From NCBI GenBank assembly GCA_039810425.1, contig JBDHWW010000027.1, forward strand, positions 1 through 39,007: a stretch of 39,007 nucleotides of DNA, given 5' to 3'. The notes under the pieces are model-generated. The model was not told the origin of the DNA. It ran no database searches and saw only the letters and a list, made by a program, of their open reading frames with translations. Source of the stretch: Pseudobdellovibrionaceae bacterium. GTDB taxonomy: Bacteria; Bdellovibrionota; Bdellovibrionia; Bdellovibrionales; Bdellovibrionaceae. This document shows, piece by piece, positions 32,237-39,007 of the stretch (position 1 is the stretch's first letter; each line of letters opens with the position of its first letter). A program made the translations under genes and the position numbers.

Positions 32237-33865
32237 ATGAAGTACGTCTACCTTCTTGAAAATGAAGAGAAATTTCGAGATGAGATGATCGAAGCAATCA
32301 GGAAAATCGATCCTCAGTTGCTGATCCGTTACTTCACATCCCTCGAGGAATTTTCAAAATGGATCAAATTGGTCATGCTGGAAGGCCCCGACGCGCTTCC
32401 CAAAGGTGGTACTGCGCCGGCGGGACAGTTGGAACCCACGGGTGGCACCCACCAATTACCTCTGATTATTTCAAAAGATGAATTCCTTGGCGCCCGACAC
32501 ATGCCCCTGCTCCGAAAGACCAGGGACTTGTTTATTAAAAAAGGCCTCTGCTCCCAAGACGATCCTACCTCCCTCGTTCTCACAAGCTTTGACAACCCTG
32601 ATTTTGATATTAAGCTCGCCGAGGACCGCACGATTAACAATGTCGTCTTTAAGCCCTTTGACAAACTCATTCTGCAACAGCATCTGGCCTTCGCCATCGG
32701 CGGACGCCATCCGGTGTCTTCTTACTCCGTCCACAATATGAAAACCACTGCGGCGATTGAGATGCTCAAAGAAGTCGAGATCGAAGCTCTCTCCGACATT
32801 GGCTTTGTCAGTATCAGCAACCGTCCATTGAAAGTCGGAGTGCTGGCAAAATACTACAGTCCCGCGTTCCTGTCGATTCAGCACCGAAGCATGATGGCCC
32901 TTTGTGTGAAGTGCGAGCCCCACCCGGAGCGTAAAGATTTTTATCGTTGTGGTTTCACCTTCCTGGCGGCGGACACATTTCAGATCAGCAATATTCGCAA
33001 ACAAGTGCGCGCCAAGGACGCAAAACCCTTTATCTACGAATGGACTGTTAAACCACAGAATGCGCTACCAGTGGAAATCGCCGTGATCACCACTGAAGAG
33101 CACCTGGGCCAGCACTTTAAAGACAGTCTCGATAAAAGCTTTGGCAATGTCCAGATTCACCACTTTGCGACTTTGCAGGATTTCCTCTATACGGTGGATC
33201 CGGAGCTCGCGAAGAAAGACAAGCGTGACATCGACTTCAGCAAGCGCCCCCACATTAAAAACACTTTGCATGCGATCGTCGCCGATCATACCCATTTCGA
33301 AGGAAGCTTCCAAGAGCGCTGGCAGACCGTGCTCGACACTGTGAAAGCGAAATTCAAAAAACCGGACACTCCCTCAGGCCTGACCGAAGTTTTTGCAATA
33401 TCAAAACACGCTTACTCCGACCCTGAAGAACGTGCTCTGGGGGAACTGGTCCGTGATATTTTCTTCCAGCCGGTAGATCCTATCTACTTGGCTAAAAAAC
33501 TTCTCGCATTTATTCCTTCATTGCGTCCGAATGAAGACCTGAAGATCGTGACCGTGGACCAGCATCACAATGCCAAGGCCGCAAGCCCGGTTGAAATCAG
33601 CGAATTCTCAGAAGCTGGCCTGGTGTTCAAGTACTATCGCCCGATCAGCACGGGGGCTTTCCGCGAGTTTGTTTTGTGGCTCCCGCACGAGTTGGATACG
33701 CCAGAGTTCCTGGCGACCTGCAATTACAGTGAAGAGAGCAAGGCCACCAAAGGTGAATATTTCAATCATTTCGTCTTTTTCGGCACGAGTGACCACTACT
33801 TAAAGCACATCCGCCGCTGGATCCTCCAGAACCACGTCCACAGCAAAGAGAGTGAGAGCGCCTAA
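32237..33865 (+). CDS. Hypothetical signalling protein with two degenerate receiver-like + PilZ-like units
   Basis: MKYVYLLENE, VFKPFD and FFQPVD receiver-like elements; ALSDIG and EFSEAG resemble the PilZ D-x-S-x-x-G motif. Confidence 0.6.
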   Translation: MKYVYLLENEEKFRDEMIEAIRKIDPQLLIRYFTSLEEFSKWIKLVMLEGPDALPKGGTAPAGQLEPTGGTHQLPLIISKDEFLGARHMPLLRKTRDLFIKKGLCSQDDPTSLVLTSFDNPDFDIKLAEDRTINNVVFKPFDKLILQQHLAFAIGGRHPVSSYSVHNMKTTAAIEMLKEVEIEALSDIGFVSISNRPLKVGVLAKYYSPAFLSIQHRSMMALCVKCEPHPERKDFYRCGFTFLAADTFQISNIRKQVRAKDAKPFIYEWTVKPQNALPVEIAVITTEEHLGQHFKDSLDKSFGNVQIHHFATLQDFLYTVDPELAKKDKRDIDFSKRPHIKNTLHAIVADHTHFEGSFQERWQTVLDTVKAKFKKPDTPSGLTEVFAISKHAYSDPEERALGELVRDIFFQPVDPIYLAKKLLAFIPSLRPNEDLKIVTVDQHHNAKAASPVEISEFSEAGLVFKYYRPISTGAFREFVLWLPHELDTPEFLATCNYSEESKATKGEYFNHFVFFGTSDHYLKHIRRWILQNHVHSKESESA

Positions 33866-33914: not shown

Positions 33915-34379
33915 ATGAAGAAAGATGCCAAGACTCCGCACAAAACCCCTGCGAAAAACTCTATTTTTGCGAAGATGAAGGAGCATAAAATCAAGGTCAC
34001 TCGCCAACGCGAAAAGATCATTGATTGTTTGATAGCGACACCCCAGCCGCAAACCGCTGAGGAAATTATGGCAAAATTCAAAAAAAGCAAAAACCCCGGC
34101 AAGTGCGATCTTGTCACGATCTATCGCACGCTTCATCAGTTTGAAAAAATCAATTTAGTCCAAAAAAGCTTTTTCAGCGAGAACTCCGCCCAATACTGCC
34201 TGAACGATCTCGACGACCATCACCATCATCATCACTTTCTGTGCAAAAAGTGCCAGAAAATCACGGAAATCGATTCTTGTCTGCTCGAGAGCCAGCTAAA
34301 GGCCCTTGAGAAAAAAGGCTTCCGCGATATTGTTCATCGCTTGGAATTTTTTGGCATCTGCCCCCAGTGCACCGCTTAA
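33915..34379 (+). CDS. Fur-family metalloregulator (Fur/Zur/PerR)
   Basis: VTRQR, TIYRTL, HHHHHHFLCKKC, GICPQC. Confidence 0.93.
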   Translation: MKKDAKTPHKTPAKNSIFAKMKEHKIKVTRQREKIIDCLIATPQPQTAEEIMAKFKKSKNPGKCDLVTIYRTLHQFEKINLVQKSFFSENSAQYCLNDLDDHHHHHHFLCKKCQKITEIDSCLLESQLKALEKKGFRDIVHRLEFFGICPQCTA

Positions 34380-34601: not shown

Positions 34602-35435
34602 CTAGCCGAGGAGCTTCAGCGCGAGTTGGTTCATCTGATTTGCCTGCGACAAAGTCGAGGTTCCGGCTTGCATTAAAATATTATTGCGAGTCATTTCCGA
34701 AGACGCTTGCGCGACGTCGGTGTCACGAATGCGTGAATTCGCCGCACTTAAATTCTCCATCGAAACACCCAAGTTATCCGCGGTTGAGGTTAAACGGTTT
34801 TGAATCGCACCGAGATTTGCACGATAACCATTCACCGACGTTTGCGCATTGTCGAGTGCTTGCAGAGCCGTTTGTGCGCCCTCTTTCGTGGAGTAATCAA
34901 GCCCTGACAGGCCTAAGGCATCAATGGTCGCAACATTTTGAGAAGCATCGAAACTGATTCTGTCTTCCTCGGCGTTATTGAAAATACCAACTTGGAAATC
35001 AAATGTGGGCGTGCTGCCATCCAAGAGCTTCGTTGTACCCCACGTCGTCACCGAGGCGATACGTTGAATCTCAGATTTCAACTGTTGGGTTTCTTTATCT
35101 AAAAATCCACGCTCTGTCGCGCCAACCGTGTCGGAGGCCGCCTGGATTCCCAGTTCCCGAAGGCGAACGATGAGGTTGCCAATCTCGTTCAAGCCTCCCT
35201 CTGCCGTTTGCACCATGGAGATACCATCATTTGTATTTCTTTGCGCTTGGCCTGCGGATCTAATTTGCGCCTTCAGGTTTTCTGAAATCGCTAAGCCCGC
35301 GGCATCATCCGCCGCCTTATTGATCCGACTGCCTGATGACAATTGCGCCATCGAGCTGTTCAATAGCCGCTGACTGCCAATCAAATTTCTTTGCGCATTG
35401 ATAGCTGATAGATTCGTTGTTACTCTCATCCCCAT
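34602..35435 (-). CDS. fliC: Flagellin (short, 277 aa)
   Basis: MGMRVTTN, LSSGSRINKAADDAAGLAISE, QTAEG, RANLGAIQNRL, SRIRDTD; RBS GGAGGA. Confidence 0.98.
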   Translation of the reverse strand: MGMRVTTNLSAINAQRNLIGSQRLLNSSMAQLSSGSRINKAADDAAGLAISENLKAQIRSAGQAQRNTNDGISMVQTAEGGLNEIGNLIVRLRELGIQAASDTVGATERGFLDKETQQLKSEIQRIASVTTWGTTKLLDGSTPTFDFQVGIFNNAEEDRISFDASQNVATIDALGLSGLDYSTKEGAQTALQALDNAQTSVNGYRANLGAIQNRLTSTADNLGVSMENLSAANSRIRDTDVAQASSEMTRNNILMQAGTSTLSQANQMNQLALKLLG

Positions 35436-35496
35436 TGTATCATCCTCCCCTGAACTGCATGTGAACCTCCTTGGCATTGTTTGTCTTCAGTCCATT

Positions 35497-35648: not shown

Positions 35649-35825
35649 ATGCGGATACTTAAGGAAATTAAGGCCACATTCAAAGAGTCCGGATTCAAAG
35701 GTGTCACCCGAAAGTATGGGTGGAAACTATTTCTAGCAGTCTTCGTTTACTATCTGATCAGGGATATCACGCTCTATATCGTGATTCCCTATTTCGTGTA
35801 TCAAGGTTTTGCCGGGCAGTCATAA
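35649..35825 (+). CDS. Small membrane protein (58 aa)
   Basis: GFKGVTRKYGWKLFLAVFVYYLIRDITLYIVIPY; protein-like composition; TTGACC upstream. Confidence 0.65.
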   Translation: MRILKEIKATFKESGFKGVTRKYGWKLFLAVFVYYLIRDITLYIVIPYFVYQGFAGQS

Positions 35826-36187
35826 AGACGGATCAGGCGCGCACCGAAATATGCGCCAGAGCGAGACAAACTCCACGGCGGGTATGGCAAGAATTTGACT
35901 TCCGCACACTGCCCCTTTTGTACCACGGCCCAACGGCGATCCTCGGAAGAGGCTGTGAAAATTTCACCCGTCTTTGCGTCCTTGACTGCCACTGCAAATG
36001 AGAAAACTTGGTTTGCCGGCTTCGCGCCTTCCGTTGTCACGACAGCCAGAGGCGCTTCAACGCGCTCAACGCCATAGACTTCCCCATCCACTGATTTTGA
36101 AAAGATATACGGGTACCAATTAACCAAAACAAAACCGACAACGCAAAGACCGACAATCACAAATAAACCAAGTAAAGCTTTTTTCAT
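35801..36187 (-). CDS. Membrane-anchored hypothetical protein
   Basis: N-terminal TM helix followed by a beta-rich domain with two Cys. Confidence 0.7.
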   Translation of the reverse strand: MKKALLGLFVIVGLCVVGFVLVNWYPYIFSKSVDGEVYGVERVEAPLAVVTTEGAKPANQVFSFAVAVKDAKTGEIFTASSEDRRWAVVQKGQCAEVKFLPYPPWSLSRSGAYFGARLIRLYDCPAKP

Positions 36188-36229: not shown

Positions 36230-37744
36230 TTAAGAAGCCTTGGGCTTCATTTGTGGGATTTGGCCTAGAATCTCCATGGAATACTCATCCAAAAAGAAAT
36301 CACAGTGACGGCACTTCATCACGTAGTGGCCTTTTTCATTTGTATCGAGGAACAGGACCGCATCCGGATGGTGCGGGCACGTGAGAGATCCCGAGAATGA
36401 GTTCATGCGGTCTGGTGGCGCCTGCAAGAGTTCGTACACAATGTTCTGATCTCCCTCAAACCCCTTGATCACGCGCTCGCCGAGACGATTTATTCCGAAG
36501 CTTTCCGCCTCCAGCACGGCCGCCACATCGCAATCCACCAGGATCTGATCCGGCTCGGCCAAGTTAGTCAAACGAGAAGCCAGCGGGAGAGGGGCGCCGA
36601 TCGCCGTATAGCAACGGAAGAACTTTTTATTCCCATAGAACCCGACGTTTGCATAACCCACAGAGACTCCCATACGAATCTGCATTTCTTTTTTCCAATT
36701 CATCAAATAGAACTCGCGATCGGCCTGAAGCAAATCACGCACTTCTAATGCCGCGTAACTCGTCCTTTGTACGAAGTCCTTATGAAGAATCGGATCGTTG
36801 GCAAACGCGAGGATCCCATCCCCTTGGAATTTATCAATCGTCAGATCATACTTTAAAAAAGTCGAAACCACGGTATCCATAAAACGTGCGAGCACCTTGT
36901 CCACTTTTTGCTGATCTAAGCGCACGACTCGTTCCGTTGAGCCCACGATATCCACGAAAATCGCACAGATCTGCGCGCGGTGAACGCCCTTTTCAAGATC
37001 GACCCGGCCTTCGCGAATGGCGCGCACCACCTGCGGACTGAATTGCGAACTCAAAGTATTTAAACGGACCGCTTCACTGGCTTTCGCCTCAATCAGCGCG
37101 TCGCGATTGGCAATTTCTGACTTCAAAGCCATGCGTGAGTTGATTTCGCGAATGCGCAGGCCCTCATTAAAGTGCCGGATCAAGAAACAAACGATGATAG
37201 ATCCCACCGTAAAAAAAGTATGAACGAAGATCGTCTTATAGTCGGAAATGCCCTGCGCTTTCGTCAACACGATGGCGTAGTACGGAGAGAAAATTCCCGC
37301 CCCCAACATCACGAAACTGAGGCGATTAAACGGTATAAATGACAAGCTCCCAATAGCGACGAGATTCAACCCTGCATAGTACGGTGTGGAAGCATCCGGA
37401 ATCAGGAAAATGATGGCATTGATACATCCCGCGACTCCAATTCCGAATCCCACGGCGACCAGTTGTGCATGACCAAACACCCGCACACGGTCGATCATGT
37501 ACTTTGCGCCAAAGCACATCGGAATCACAAGCAAGCGGATCGCCAGGAAAGTCCATTTAAACTCAGGATAGAAGCTCAAATCCGCCAACCAGAACACCAT
37601 AAATAACGGAATCGCCATCCAGTGACAAATCACGTGCATGACCGAACGAATTTCCGCCATCACTTCGAATTCCCGAAGTGCGCTTGTGGTTATTTCAGGT
37701 GGCAAGCTCCCTTTTTCCTGTTCCAAGCAATCCTTACTTTTCAA
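36230..37744 (-). CDS. 6-TM sensor fused to class III adenylate/guanylate cyclase domain with C-terminal Cys/His knuckle
   Basis: Six hydrophobic segments including STPYYAGLNLV; FVDIVGST, IDKFQGDGILA, YTAIGAPLPLASRL; CPHH...CRHC. Start uncertain. Confidence 0.88.
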   Translation of the reverse strand: MKSKDCLEQEKGSLPPEITTSALREFEVMAEIRSVMHVICHWMAIPLFMVFWLADLSFYPEFKWTFLAIRLLVIPMCFGAKYMIDRVRVFGHAQLVAVGFGIGVAGCINAIIFLIPDASTPYYAGLNLVAIGSLSFIPFNRLSFVMLGAGIFSPYYAIVLTKAQGISDYKTIFVHTFFTVGSIIVCFLIRHFNEGLRIREINSRMALKSEIANRDALIEAKASEAVRLNTLSSQFSPQVVRAIREGRVDLEKGVHRAQICAIFVDIVGSTERVVRLDQQKVDKVLARFMDTVVSTFLKYDLTIDKFQGDGILAFANDPILHKDFVQRTSYAALEVRDLLQADREFYLMNWKKEMQIRMGVSVGYANVGFYGNKKFFRCYTAIGAPLPLASRLTNLAEPDQILVDCDVAAVLEAESFGINRLGERVIKGFEGDQNIVYELLQAPPDRMNSFSGSLTCPHHPDAVLFLDTNEKGHYVMKCRHCDFFLDEYSMEILGQIPQMKPKAS

Positions 37745-38918
37745 TCACCACAAAGAGGTTCACTCCGAGCGGTTCTTTTTCCACGTAGACTTTCGAACCA
37801 AAGCCTTTAAACATTCTTTCAAGGTCTTCTTTCGAGCGATAAATCAAATTCCAGTCAAGCCACAGCTCCATAAATGGCGCACACGGATTTTCCGTGCTGA
37901 AATTACCGATAATGAGCGTTCCGCCCGGCTTTAAACAAGCCAGCATCTTTTGCGCCGCCATTTGGGCGACGGGCTCTGTGAAATAGTCAAAAAGACCGGC
38001 TGAGTAAACGAAGTCGTAATCCTTTTCCGGCAAGCCCGCGGCAATCACGTTACGGATCGCGAGGTTTCTGAATTGGAATTTAAATCCCGATTTCACAAAG
38101 CGCTCCATTGAACCGATTTGCTTTTGCGCATGCTTCAGGGACTCTTCGTCTTGGTCCAGGCACGTGAAGGACACGTTACGGCCGTAACACTCGCGATGGT
38201 TCTGCAAAAAGAGCTGCTGCTCAACCGCAGGGCCGCTGGCGACCGAGATGATCTTCATAAGCTCGTTGGCAGGATGGGCTTTTACCAACTGGGCCAATTT
38301 TGCTTCGAGGTATTCGCCGCGGTTTTTCACCGCGACACCTGCCGGTTCATCGACGAAATACTTATGCATGCATTGATCAAACAACGTCCTGCCGGTCACT
38401 TCGGCGCGGTAAAGATGGTTCATCATTTCATAGTCACCGGCATAGCCGCGGGGCTTGTAATAAGCGCGCGCCGCAAACGGAGCACCGTAAATGTAAGGCC
38501 CAATTTGTTCCCGAATGAAATCCGTCGCAAACTGGGTGTCTTCGGGGCTGAGGCCCTTTAACATTGGTGGAACTTGGCTATAAACATGCGGAACAACGCT
38601 GCCGATGTATTCGCCCATGTTCTCAACAATGGTCATGCGATACTCGGCGGCTTCTTGCGCATTATCAACCGGCGCATCTTTTTCGAGCTGGTCAATTTGT
38701 TCTTTCAATTTCTGGAACCAGTCGCGCACCTGGAAGACGATCTGCCGGTAATTTTCCGGCAGGCGCTGAACCTTGGCGGCGTACTCGTTTTGCTTTTGTA
38801 AAACGCCCGCTGTGAGTTCCAAAACTTTGATCCGGTCGATCTTGAAAGGCTCCCCGATGGTCTCAAAGGCCCAAATGCGCTCACCGCTCACGCTGGTGGG
38901 GTGCGCTTCATCGCGCAC
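37734..38918 (-). CDS. Class I SAM-dependent methyltransferase, PhcB-like; probably 5'-incomplete
   Basis: YYKPRGYAGDYEMMN, SVASGPAVE, LDQDEESL, YSAGLFDY, LKPGG.LIIGNF, WNLIYRS; frame stays open about 20 codons upstream of the GTG. Confidence 0.88.
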   Translation of the reverse strand: MRDEAHPTSVSGERIWAFETIGEPFKIDRIKVLELTAGVLQKQNEYAAKVQRLPENYRQIVFQVRDWFQKLKEQIDQLEKDAPVDNAQEAAEYRMTIVENMGEYIGSVVPHVYSQVPPMLKGLSPEDTQFATDFIREQIGPYIYGAPFAARAYYKPRGYAGDYEMMNHLYRAEVTGRTLFDQCMHKYFVDEPAGVAVKNRGEYLEAKLAQLVKAHPANELMKIISVASGPAVEQQLFLQNHRECYGRNVSFTCLDQDEESLKHAQKQIGSMERFVKSGFKFQFRNLAIRNVIAAGLPEKDYDFVYSAGLFDYFTEPVAQMAAQKMLACLKPGGTLIIGNFSTENPCAPFMELWLDWNLIYRSKEDLERMFKGFGSKVYVEKEPLGVNLFVVIEK

Positions 38919-39007
38919 TTTGCGAAGATGTATGAACTGTTTTTTTAGGAGTGAGACGAATCTGATTTTTTTGGTTCGTCAGTTTGATTGTTAAACTTTT
39001 ATACAGT

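Follow-up and report, generated by a model that had tools for sequence, protein, structure and literature searches.

A PhcB-family methyltransferase gene beside a MASE8-like sensor-cyclase gene in a Pseudobdellovibrionaceae genome: a candidate lipid-ester signal cassette with exchanged output

Two adjacent genes and their domains

The window, as we call the whole stretch of DNA analysed here, is contig JBDHWW010000027.1 (C27; 39,007 nucleotides) of a Pseudobdellovibrionaceae assembly (GCA_039810425.1; 149 contigs, 3.54 Mb, completeness 99.88%) and is the entire contig. Towards its end, two genes lie in tandem: a gene of the PhcB family of S-adenosylmethionine (SAM) methyltransferases comes first, and a gene for a six-helix membrane protein fused to a class III nucleotide cyclase lies directly downstream. 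PhcB makes the 3-hydroxy fatty acid methyl esters 3-OH PAME/MAME, which are sensed by PhcS (PMC7694676). A sequence-only reading of the window had proposed a signal synthase and receptor pair of this kind with a cyclase as output. The two open reading frames (ORFs) and both signature motifs were found where that reading had placed them, as judged by ORF calls, motif coordinates and Pfam domains (Table 1). Its description of the second product, a protein with six transmembrane (TM) helices and STPYYAGLNLV fused to a class III cyclase, was confirmed by six hydrophobic segments, the motif and a Guanylate_cyc domain. Its description of the first, a SAM methyltransferase whose gene overlaps the next, stood for the domains, for the motif KPRGYAGDYEMMN and, if translation of the cyclase starts at the TTG at 37744, for an overlap of 11 nt; the ORF itself (37734-38918, minus strand, 394 aa) turned out to be a gene fragment. 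An alternative cyclase start, a TTG at 37726 with TAAGGA in front, would leave a gap of 8 nt after the methyltransferase stop.

The 394-aa ORF matched Methyltransf_25, Methyltransf_31 and Methyltransf_11 of Pfam above threshold, identifying a class I SAM methyltransferase of a large family (4380 representative clusters at E <= 1e-3; 443 at E <= 1e-30). KP[LR]GY[AP]GD[YF] is present in 28 of the 30 family members listed and recurs throughout the family alignment (A1). As stand-ins for Ralstonia solanacearum PhcB, 15 PhcB-type proteins of Cupriavidus, Paraburkholderia and Massilia were aligned (A4), in which KPLGYAGDY (K219-Y227) is invariant, in agreement with KPxGYAGDY as a typical motif of PhcB homologues. 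Profile alignment, suggested as a check against Ralstonia PhcB, was made of A1 to A4 and gave 100% probability and E 8.9e-57 over 338 columns, spanning the helical bundle and the whole catalytic domain (hhalign). Pairwise, P0001, a full-length relative 94% identical to the window sequence, shares 30% identity over 279 aa with a Cupriavidus protein (BLASTP, E 3e-31). Several members, Bdellovibrionota included, bear the JGI name 'EF 3-hydroxypalmitic acid methyl ester biosynthesis protein', and automated JGI names already flag the methyltransferase as PhcB-like. A plasmid of Paraburkholderia graminis carries an operon in the phcBSRQ layout, in which genes for a 468-aa methyltransferase and a 445-aa membrane kinase are joined by two for response regulators; our hidden Markov model (HMM) of the family matched its methyltransferase at E 4e-79, and that protein's relatives are Cupriavidus, Massilia and Paraburkholderia proteins labelled with the PhcB name by JGI or NCBI. 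PhcB itself has a length of 464-468 aa (PMC7694676). R22 is invariant in A4, which fits the report of an adaptive PhcB mutation, R22C, at a residue conserved in Ralstonia, Cupriavidus and Paraburkholderia (PMC6989110). When published Ralstonia mutation sites were placed on the Paraburkholderia proteins, PhcB R22 coincided but PhcS L161 and PhcQ R154 did not, a weak comparison on which we do not rely.

Phylogenetically, the methyltransferase stands apart from its Burkholderiaceae relatives. In a tree of 94 methyltransferases (IQ-TREE quick search, LG+G4, unrooted), the window sequence belongs to a clade of 39 rows (SH-aLRT support 96), and the six PhcB-type proteins belong to another of 33 rows (support 100) that also holds Verrucomicrobiota and Planctomycetota. 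The sequence-only reading had counted clustering outside the PhcB clade among the outcomes that would refute it, and a separate, supported clade is what was found. In the AlphaFold model of P0001 (89-row alignment; pLDDT, the predicted local distance difference score, 94.8), a beta-barrel spans residues 31-118 and a helical bundle residues 125-252, followed by a Rossmann domain. The structures that resemble it are the uncharacterised Bordetella protein 3ocj, C-methyltransferases embedded in polyketide or fatty acid synthases (PKS/FAS) and O-methyltransferases of natural-product pathways, with no CheR among the roughly 40 best matches listed. By sequence, the PDB search with the methyltransferase was uninformative (best E 0.023), and tblastn against plasmids returned relatives of the catalytic half only. 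In a Myxococcaceae metagenome-assembled genome (L086:5469-7502), the methyltransferase gene is followed by a fatty-acid hydroxylase-cytochrome P450 fusion with no sensor, a neighbour that hints at hydroxylated fatty acids as substrates of the family.

The N-terminal domain of the intact methyltransferase, modelled alone from a genus-mate (pLDDT 90.6), adopts a PilZ beta-barrel fold. VIA-align Z-scores were 10.2 for MrkH, 9.7 and 9.4 for YcgR, 9.0 for MotI, 8.8 for PlzA, 8.7 for PP4397 and 8.4 for Alg44; seven of the eight top chains in a structure search independent of Foldseek are PilZ proteins that bind cyclic di-GMP (c-di-GMP), and the best Foldseek match is PlzA (E 1.2e-3). Two nearly invariant motifs, R-Q-D-R and N-x-S-x-F-G, resemble PilZ motifs; a PDB search with the profile of the domain gave no match. 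As modelled, the PilZ-fold domain may place signal synthesis under the control of c-di-GMP.

The membrane domain of the cyclase has six hydrophobic segments with very short loops (hydropathy), and Pfam found nothing in residues 1-231, nor did NCBIfam recognize the membrane domain. An HMM built on the first 215 residues of 12 Bdellovibrionota cyclases matched the membrane kinase of the Paraburkholderia operon (E 2.3e-19, 57.9 bits, model positions 34-197), with sLFYAGLtL of the kinase aligned to sPYYAGLNL. Pfam MASE8 is present in all 120 relatives listed for this kinase, accompanied in 119 by HisKA and HATPase_c. Many of these relatives bear the name 'sensor histidine kinase PhcS', two from Cupriavidus taiwanensis are entered as 'repressor of PhcA', and Ralstonia insidiosa contributes one. 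An alignment of 23 cyclase-coupled sensors (A2, window sequence first) was compared with one of 18 PhcS-type kinases (A3, R. insidiosa P0477 first) by hhalign. The two aligned with 99.0% probability and E 3.9e-18 over 185 columns, pairing window residues 26-214 with kinase residues 10-194 and covering all six helices together with about 20 residues of the helix after TM6; the expected likeness of the cyclase membrane region to PhcS was thereby recovered against PhcS-type proxies. F51, D55, R70, Y122, G125, L126, P154 and F178 are invariant in the 23 cyclase-coupled sensors, and D55, R70 and Y122-A-G-L correspond to the kinase invariants D39, R54 and Y107-A-G, with an identical D-to-R spacing of 15 residues. 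S..YAGL is invariant in the PhcS-type kinases, in line with PYYAGLNL-type TM domains in the partner sensors of PhcB homologues. On these alignments, the KPxGYAGDY-type and YAGL motifs are family signatures and not chance resemblances. Since Pfam MASE8 recognizes only two of the 23 cyclase-coupled relatives, both below threshold, the window sensor is, by sequence, a divergent branch of the PhcS-type (MASE8) domain. The sensor model matched a single one of the genome's 9925 stop-to-stop frames, that of the window cyclase. The receptor would work like a PhcS-type sensor, yet it is no PhcS, with Guanylate_cyc in place of HisKA and HATPase_c.

Guanylate_cyc was assigned to aa 258-431 (E 3e-10, 40.3 bits against a cut-off of 21.9), and the closest solved relative is the catalytic domain of Pseudomonas aeruginosa CyaB (3r5g; E 2.4e-17, aa 255-438). 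In the 23 sensor-cyclases, D265, D309 and R391 are invariant and K305 and T380 are each kept in 22; by the usual roles of these residues in class III enzymes, we take D265 and D309 to bind metal, K305 and T380 to recognize the substrate and R391 to be the catalytic Arg. The Lys/Thr pair points to ATP as the substrate. At the position of the transition-state Asn, the window has Pro387. Residues 387 and 307 covary perfectly, with Asn387 accompanied by Leu or Ile307 (15 of 15) and Pro or Val387 by Gln or His307 (8 of 8; Gln307 in the window), which looks like a compensated rebuild of the transition-state site in a Bdellovibrio subclade. The linker residues Q234, F235, S236, P237 and Q238 are invariant in all 23 sequences. 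This QFSPQ segment is likely a signal-transmitting helix between sensor and cyclase, and we assume that it resembles the cyclase transducer element of class IIIa/b enzymes. In the tail, C456, C478 and C481 are invariant within a conserved Cys4 or Cys3His pattern, and Zn_ribbon_RPB9 and Zn_ribbon_8 matched 7 and 4 of the 23 relatives, respectively, at E <= 1; we know of no such zinc-ribbon tail on class III cyclases. The genome encodes two class III cyclases in all and yielded 13 matches to cyclic nucleotide (cNMP)-binding domains, 4 to GGDEF and 12 to PilZ. A loop from cyclic AMP (cAMP) through a Bd1971-type EAL protein to c-di-GMP and PilZ was considered and is unsupported here, as no EAL domain was found in the assembly, whose completeness was given above, by a search that did not extend to HD-GYP.

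Table 1 Features of the methyltransferase/sensor-cyclase locus, in window positions
Feature	Position	Strand	Basis
Membrane cyclase gene, 504 aa: MASE8-like 6-TM sensor, coiled linker, class III cyclase, C-terminal zinc ribbon	36230..37744	-	ORF, Pfam Guanylate_cyc
Sensor domain, aa 26-214: six TM helices and juxtamembrane helix	37103..37669	-	hhalign, HMM, hydropathy
STPYYAGLNLV motif in TM4 of the sensor, aligning with SLFYAGL of PhcS-type kinases	37358..37390	-	
Linker, aa 215-257, with QFSPQ	36974..37102	-	Invariance in 23 sequences
Class III cyclase catalytic domain, aa 258-431; adenylate-type K305/T380, Pro387	36452..36973	-	Pfam
C-terminal Cys/His zinc-ribbon-like tail: C456, H459, C478, C481	36275..36379	-	Alignment of 23
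PhcB-family SAM methyltransferase, 3' fragment, codons ~95-492: end of PilZ fold, helical bundle, Rossmann domain	37734..38933	-	
KPRGYAGDYEMMN, methyltransferase family signature motif	38418..38456	-	
TAC target-site duplication at the insertion point; second copy ends the gene's 5' piece on contig C92	38931..38933	.	
IS3-family insertion sequence, terminal 74 bases, up to the contig end	38934..39007	.	Identity to ends of contigs C99 and C77

Conserved pairing and exchange of outputs

The pairing of the two genes was surveyed at three scales. Within the family, the methyltransferase is present in 18 of 61 genomes at E <= 1e-20 (this genome counted), and tblastn placed a cyclase homologue downstream at 16 of the 17 other loci; the 17th ends 3 b past the methyltransferase match. 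Of these homologues, eleven span the full length at E <= 1e-85 and two do so with weak scores; two others share the catalytic domain only, and one runs into a contig edge. Across 201 Bdellovibrionota genomes, the sensor domain was found in 44 (E <= 1e-8) and the methyltransferase in 33 (E <= 1e-30), counts that were made at different thresholds and include related, non-independent genomes. Thirty of the 33 methyltransferase-positive genomes also hold the sensor, and in all 30 the two are neighbours, of which 28 are tandem pairs no more than ~100 nt apart and 2 are divergent pairs separated by ~1.2-1.3 kb, so that conservation of the pairing across Bdellovibrionota, which the sequence-only reading had left to such a survey, was borne out. 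Some Bdellovibrionota genomes contain two sensor-domain genes (G189, G078 on its contig C10, G147 and G236), and in G189 these stand in tandem after one methyltransferase (C1:102613-106285). The sensor occurs without a strong methyltransferase match in 14 of the 201 genomes, which may be listeners only.

The third survey covered named genomes, using the best 80 of more than 599 matching stretches, drawn from Bdellovibrionota, Myxococcota, Verrucomicrobiota, Acidobacteriota, Planctomycetota, Leptospira and others, with no Ralstonia among them. The sensor HMM matched one ORF at each of 65 of these loci. In 61 cases this ORF is the next or next-but-one gene downstream of the called methyltransferase ORF; at L068, L108 and L111 no methyltransferase ORF was called and the sensor match begins less than 300 b from the end of the methyltransferase match, and at L055 the sensor match lies upstream on the opposite strand. 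At 2 of the 15 loci with no sensor match, the contig ends at the methyltransferase. In Bdellovibrio sp. HCB290 (L049:7582-8928) and HCB209 (L052:7608-9083), the gene directly behind the methyltransferase is of an SLT or lysozyme-like type, and its counterpart in at least one relative (L050) stands after the cyclase gene; the sensor-cyclase seems to have been lost from these two loci, leaving an orphan synthase.

The outputs of the 65 partners are diverse. They include 20 cyclases (18 by Pfam and 2 cut ORFs by our own model), 15 HisKA/HATPase kinases, 23 hybrids with kinase, receiver and kinase modules, one SpoIIE phosphatase (PP2C; Leptospira), one kinase-receiver-SpoIIE, one kinase-receiver-cyclase and 4 that are cut or unassigned. 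At all 4 plain-kinase loci scanned, the next gene encodes a receiver-plus-kinase protein of 351-421 aa, an architecture described for PhcR (PMC7694676), and the hybrid kinase partners look like fusions of PhcS and PhcR. In the methyltransferase tree, all 30 cyclase-coupled proteins fall within the 39-row clade, beside two kinase-coupled ones (L044 and L047) and seven with no called partner. The kinase-output sensors of L044 (6369-8570) and L047 (1844-3181) are very near the cyclase type (E 1e-58 and 3e-51), so outputs have been exchanged between close relatives. These two loci point to recent swapping of the output at the helix after TM6.

An insertion sequence splits the methyltransferase gene

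The METHYLTRANSFERASE gene is interrupted at window position 38933/38934, after codon ~94 of ~492. Relatives of the methyltransferase are 485-493 aa long and span the 394-aa ORF fully; the window covers only residues 90-492 of P0001, and its homology to the relatives ends at ~38933-38945. The missing residues 1-94 were located at the end of a second contig (C92:6625-6906). The GTG at 38918 is merely the first start codon past an upstream stop, with no Shine-Dalgarno sequence evident by eye, and on this reading is no genuine start. At each contig end, the gene gives way to unrelated sequence that has inverted-repeat termini, TGTACTGTTTTTT on C92 and AAAAAAACAGTTCA (read on the gene strand) on C27, with junctions ...aacctTAC|TGTACTG... 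and ...CAGTTCA|TACatctt..., respectively. Excision of the element with one TAC restores acc-tta-cat-ctt (T-L-H-L), exactly as in intact relatives. In genus-mate G050, where the gene is intact, the order is cyclase, methyltransferase and a divergent 526-aa gene; in this genome the 526-aa gene, whose product reads by eye as RNase Y, lies with the 5' end of the methyltransferase gene on C92, and the remainder is on C27. The insertion falls in the N-terminal PilZ-fold domain, within the long strand 89-103 of the model.

The element belongs to the IS3 family of insertion sequences (IS). The terminal 74 bases of C27 (38934-39007) recur with 100% identity at the ends of C99 and C77, two other contigs, and the flanks diverge past the shared boundary. 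With no contig below 2500 b in the assembly, the body of a collapsed IS would have been lost to the length filter. Genus-mate G065 has a contig-internal copy of the IS end, 78% identical, in which the same TG...CA termini enclose ~1.46 kb (L115:1500-2965) encoding orfA (HTH_Tnp_1) and orfB (rve/rve_3 integrase), and it is this copy that identifies the element as IS3-family. The assignment combines the TG...CA ends and the 3-bp TAC duplication of this genome with orfA/orfB of the G065 copy, since the IS body of the genome studied here is absent from its assembly. An IS630/Tc1 element with TA duplication was rejected, because DDE_3 gave one sub-threshold match elsewhere in the genome and the full G065 copy is of IS3 type. 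The IS3-family element occurs at several sites in this genome, and the assembly is broken by IS at three or more places. In the run that probably lies behind the assembly, a 28.8-kb flank unitig (depth 13.7) stops inside the IS end, other flanks join the same end, and the IS body forms a 1307-b unitig at depth 190, ~14 times the flank depth.

Could the split be an artefact of assembly or binning, with the gene intact in the organism? The fragmented assembly and its lack of short contigs leave some room for this, and contigs lose rare variants, so a minority intact allele could have escaped; for the same reason, the failure to find a contig in the source-like run that bridges an intact allele is absence of evidence only. 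Contigs of three further runs reach just parts of the stretch and are silent on the insertion site in other samples. Against it stand the IS3-type ends at both junctions, the duplication that restores the frame exactly, the flank unitig that enters the IS end with no contig bridging the intact gene, and the two further unrelated flanks that the same IS end abuts in the assembly. We judge an artefact to be very unlikely. No second methyltransferase copy was found in this genome by the family HMM over the 9925 stop-to-stop frames, among which the fragment itself scored E 7e-162. The synthase gene is most likely inactive in this genome while the receptor-cyclase gene stays intact.

Other ORFs of the window were compared at twelve loci. 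A 128-aa ORF with an N-terminal hydrophobic segment (35801-36187, minus strand) lies 43 nt downstream of the cyclase gene on the same strand; it has no Pfam family and is conserved in both genus-mates (96% and 80% identity), and no counterpart was found at the ten other compared loci. A 542-aa ORF (32237-33865, plus strand) with no Pfam match adjoins a gene for a Fur-family regulator (33915-34379) and a flagellin gene (34602-35477, minus strand), and among the twelve loci was found in the two genus-mates only.

A candidate lipid-signal cassette with cyclase output

We consider it fairly probable that the locus encodes a signal cassette of the Phc type whose output has been exchanged. By homology, the intact PhcB-family methyltransferase would make a methyl ester that is hydrophobic and most likely derives from a (hydroxy) fatty acid, and its PilZ-fold domain may gate this synthesis by c-di-GMP. 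Within the membrane, the ester is probably bound by the MASE8-like six-helix domain of the dimeric cyclase, from which the juxtamembrane helix after TM6 and the QFSPQ linker would carry the signal on to the adenylate-type catalytic domain. The signal would in this way be turned directly into cAMP, replacing a phosphorelay, and the cNMP-binding proteins of the genome could read it. With its synthase disrupted and its receptor-cyclase intact, this genome would represent a signal-negative, receiver-positive variant. The homologies, the conserved adjacency, the swapping of outputs and the IS insertion are observed directly. Our inference of an ester product and its binding by the receptor, of how regulation is directed and of density sensing draws on the Ralstonia system (PMC7694676) and on an engineered cyclase chimera (PMC4821796); cAMP as product and the c-di-GMP input are likewise predictions. 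The proposal of a synthase-receptor pair with cyclase output thus holds for the homology of both parts, their adjacency and the Guanylate_cyc domain, but probably not for a working synthase in this genome.

The Phc system of Ralstonia, Cupriavidus and Paraburkholderia is the closest comparison. The synthases are homologous, share the helical and Rossmann domains and KPxGYAGDY, and precede the receptor gene immediately; the receptors share a MASE8-type membrane domain with the same D/R/S..YAGL signature. The window receptor differs in ending in a class III cyclase and zinc ribbon and not in the HisKA-HATPase module of PhcS, and no PhcR- or PhcQ-like genes follow it, whereas Ralstonia uses a PhcS-PhcR phosphorelay. 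The window-family synthase differs in its separate clade, in its disruption by an IS in this genome and in a PilZ-fold N-domain (RxxR...NxSxxG) that is unaligned to the PhcB N-terminus. A second parallel is man-made: a chimera of the Vibrio CAI-1 receptor CqsS with the mycobacterial cyclase Rv1625c is a ligand-regulated cyclase with a half-maximal effective concentration (EC50) for CAI-1 of 400 nM (PMC4821796). There, too, the segment after TM6 links a six-helix quorum receptor with minimal loops to the dimeric class III cyclase under its control. The window protein, in contrast, is natural, its receptor is of the MASE8/PhcS type and not CqsS, and its partner is a methyltransferase where the CAI-1 synthase CqsA is an acyl-CoA transferase. 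PhcS goes unmentioned in that paper (PMC4821796).

Among natural cyclases, P. aeruginosa CyaB (class IIIb) offers the closest solved catalytic domain and shares the adenylate-type Lys/Thr residues, but it keeps the transition-state Asn (VNLASRL) where the window has Pro, and its membrane domain is of another family. That N-terminal membrane sensor is MASE2, and no synthase gene is known beside CyaB. Mycobacterium tuberculosis Rv1625c/Cya and the mammalian membrane adenylyl cyclases likewise place a class III cyclase after six TM helices, with weak similarity of the catalytic domain (7yz9, E 6.6e-5). For their anchors, no ligand or ligand synthase is known (PMC9433096, PMC12414865), whereas the gene beside the window cyclase points to a candidate ligand.

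Several observations weigh against the cassette or narrow it. R. solanacearum PhcB and PhcS entered all comparisons through named proxies. The methyltransferase belongs to a sister clade of Burkholderiaceae PhcB at ~30% identity, so its product may differ, and its N-terminal ~115 residues found no alignment to PhcB-type proteins (hhalign, A1 against A4). Within that region, the motif reads RxxR where canonical PilZ domains have RxxxR, and Pfam PilZ matched just 4 of 32 N-domains, weakly (best E 0.008). Pfam MASE8 (PF20968) gave no match to the window sensor even at E <= 10, and its two sub-threshold matches among the 23 relatives were at E 0.005 or weaker. The two genes are not strictly co-dependent, since 3 of the 201 Bdellovibrionota genomes have the methyltransferase and no sensor in addition to the 14 that show the reverse. 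With its synthase broken, the pair probably cannot signal to itself in this genome, barring expression and activity of the truncated 3' part. Lacking the canonical transition-state Asn, the window cyclase may also have low or altered activity.

This last point leads to the reading that the cyclase domain of the window subclade is a weak or pseudo-enzyme, or makes another nucleotide, and signals by protein contacts, for instance through the zinc ribbon, and not by cAMP. Pro387 in the window, Pro or Val in 8 of the 23 relatives, the conserved C-terminal zinc ribbon and the modest Pfam score of 40 bits all lend it something. The domain nevertheless keeps both metal-binding Asp residues, the Lys/Thr pair and the Arg; the loss of Asn covaries perfectly with the change from L307 to Q/H, like compensation under selection; Asn is retained in 15 of the 23; and the genome has many cNMP receptors for only two class III cyclases. 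Taken together, these features make a dead or redirected cyclase improbable. A larger share, though still a minor one, falls to a private circuit that senses envelope or lipid status, in which the membrane lipid or metabolite modified by the methyltransferase is retained by its producer and the MASE8-like domain tracks it to adjust cAMP, with no diffusible signal or density sensing. A sensor almost devoid of extracytoplasmic loops takes its input from within the membrane, the PilZ-fold domain suggests that the enzyme is controlled internally, and the structural neighbours of the methyltransferase act on acyl-carrier-linked or small lipophilic substrates, all in keeping with such a circuit. However, PhcB, the only characterised member of the family, makes a secreted volatile signal sensed by PhcS (PMC7694676), and the 14 sensor-only genomes fit listening to the signals of others better than a private circuit; we therefore hold lipid-status sensing to be unlikely. 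That the methyltransferase might instead methylate the adjacent sensor protein, in the manner of CheR, and make no small-molecule ligand is hinted at by weak sequence matches (PDB 5ftw, E 0.023; Pfam CheR, E 0.046) and by one plasmid relative annotated CheR. We hold it to be very improbable: the ~40 best structural matches listed are all small-molecule, PKS or FAS methyltransferases, and the family includes PhcB, which is needed for 3-OH PAME/MAME (PMC7694676, PMC6989110).

Our literature search, which did not extend to supplements, found no description of a Phc-type pair coupled to a cyclase, nor of Phc-type pairs outside Burkholderiales, and MASE8 received relevant mention only in passing. 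The loci described here extend Phc-type synthase-receptor pairs beyond Burkholderiaceae to Bdellovibrionota, Myxococcota, Verrucomicrobiota, Acidobacteriota, Planctomycetota and Leptospira, where the output is a kinase, hybrid kinase, phosphatase or cyclase. More tentatively, and as a combination of claims that we think possible but doubtful as a whole, the PilZ-methyltransferase and MASE8 sensor could form an ancient multi-phylum lipid-ester cassette with interchangeable outputs and c-di-GMP-gated synthesis. IS-knockout strains would then be natural signal-negative listeners in wastewater communities, and the Bdellovibrionota form would be the first case in nature of a six-helix class III adenylate cyclase anchored by a receptor for which a cognate ligand synthase can be identified. 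Whether the six-helix anchors of class III adenylate cyclases are receptors is an open question of long standing (PMC4821796, PMC12414865, PMC9433096). Here, a natural cyclase with a quorum-sensor-type anchor lies beside a gene whose enzyme should make its ligand, so that the ligand can be searched for directly. Bdellovibrio bacteriovorus itself carries a methyltransferase/cyclase pair (L050); in strain HD100, the four annotated cyclases are called uncharacterised, as is still the source of cAMP (PMC6717892). The pair suggests self-made lipid signals in predatory bacteria and, if the proposal is true, the Bdellovibrionota pair, that of B. bacteriovorus included, would be the natural counterpart of the engineered CqsS-cyclase chimeras.

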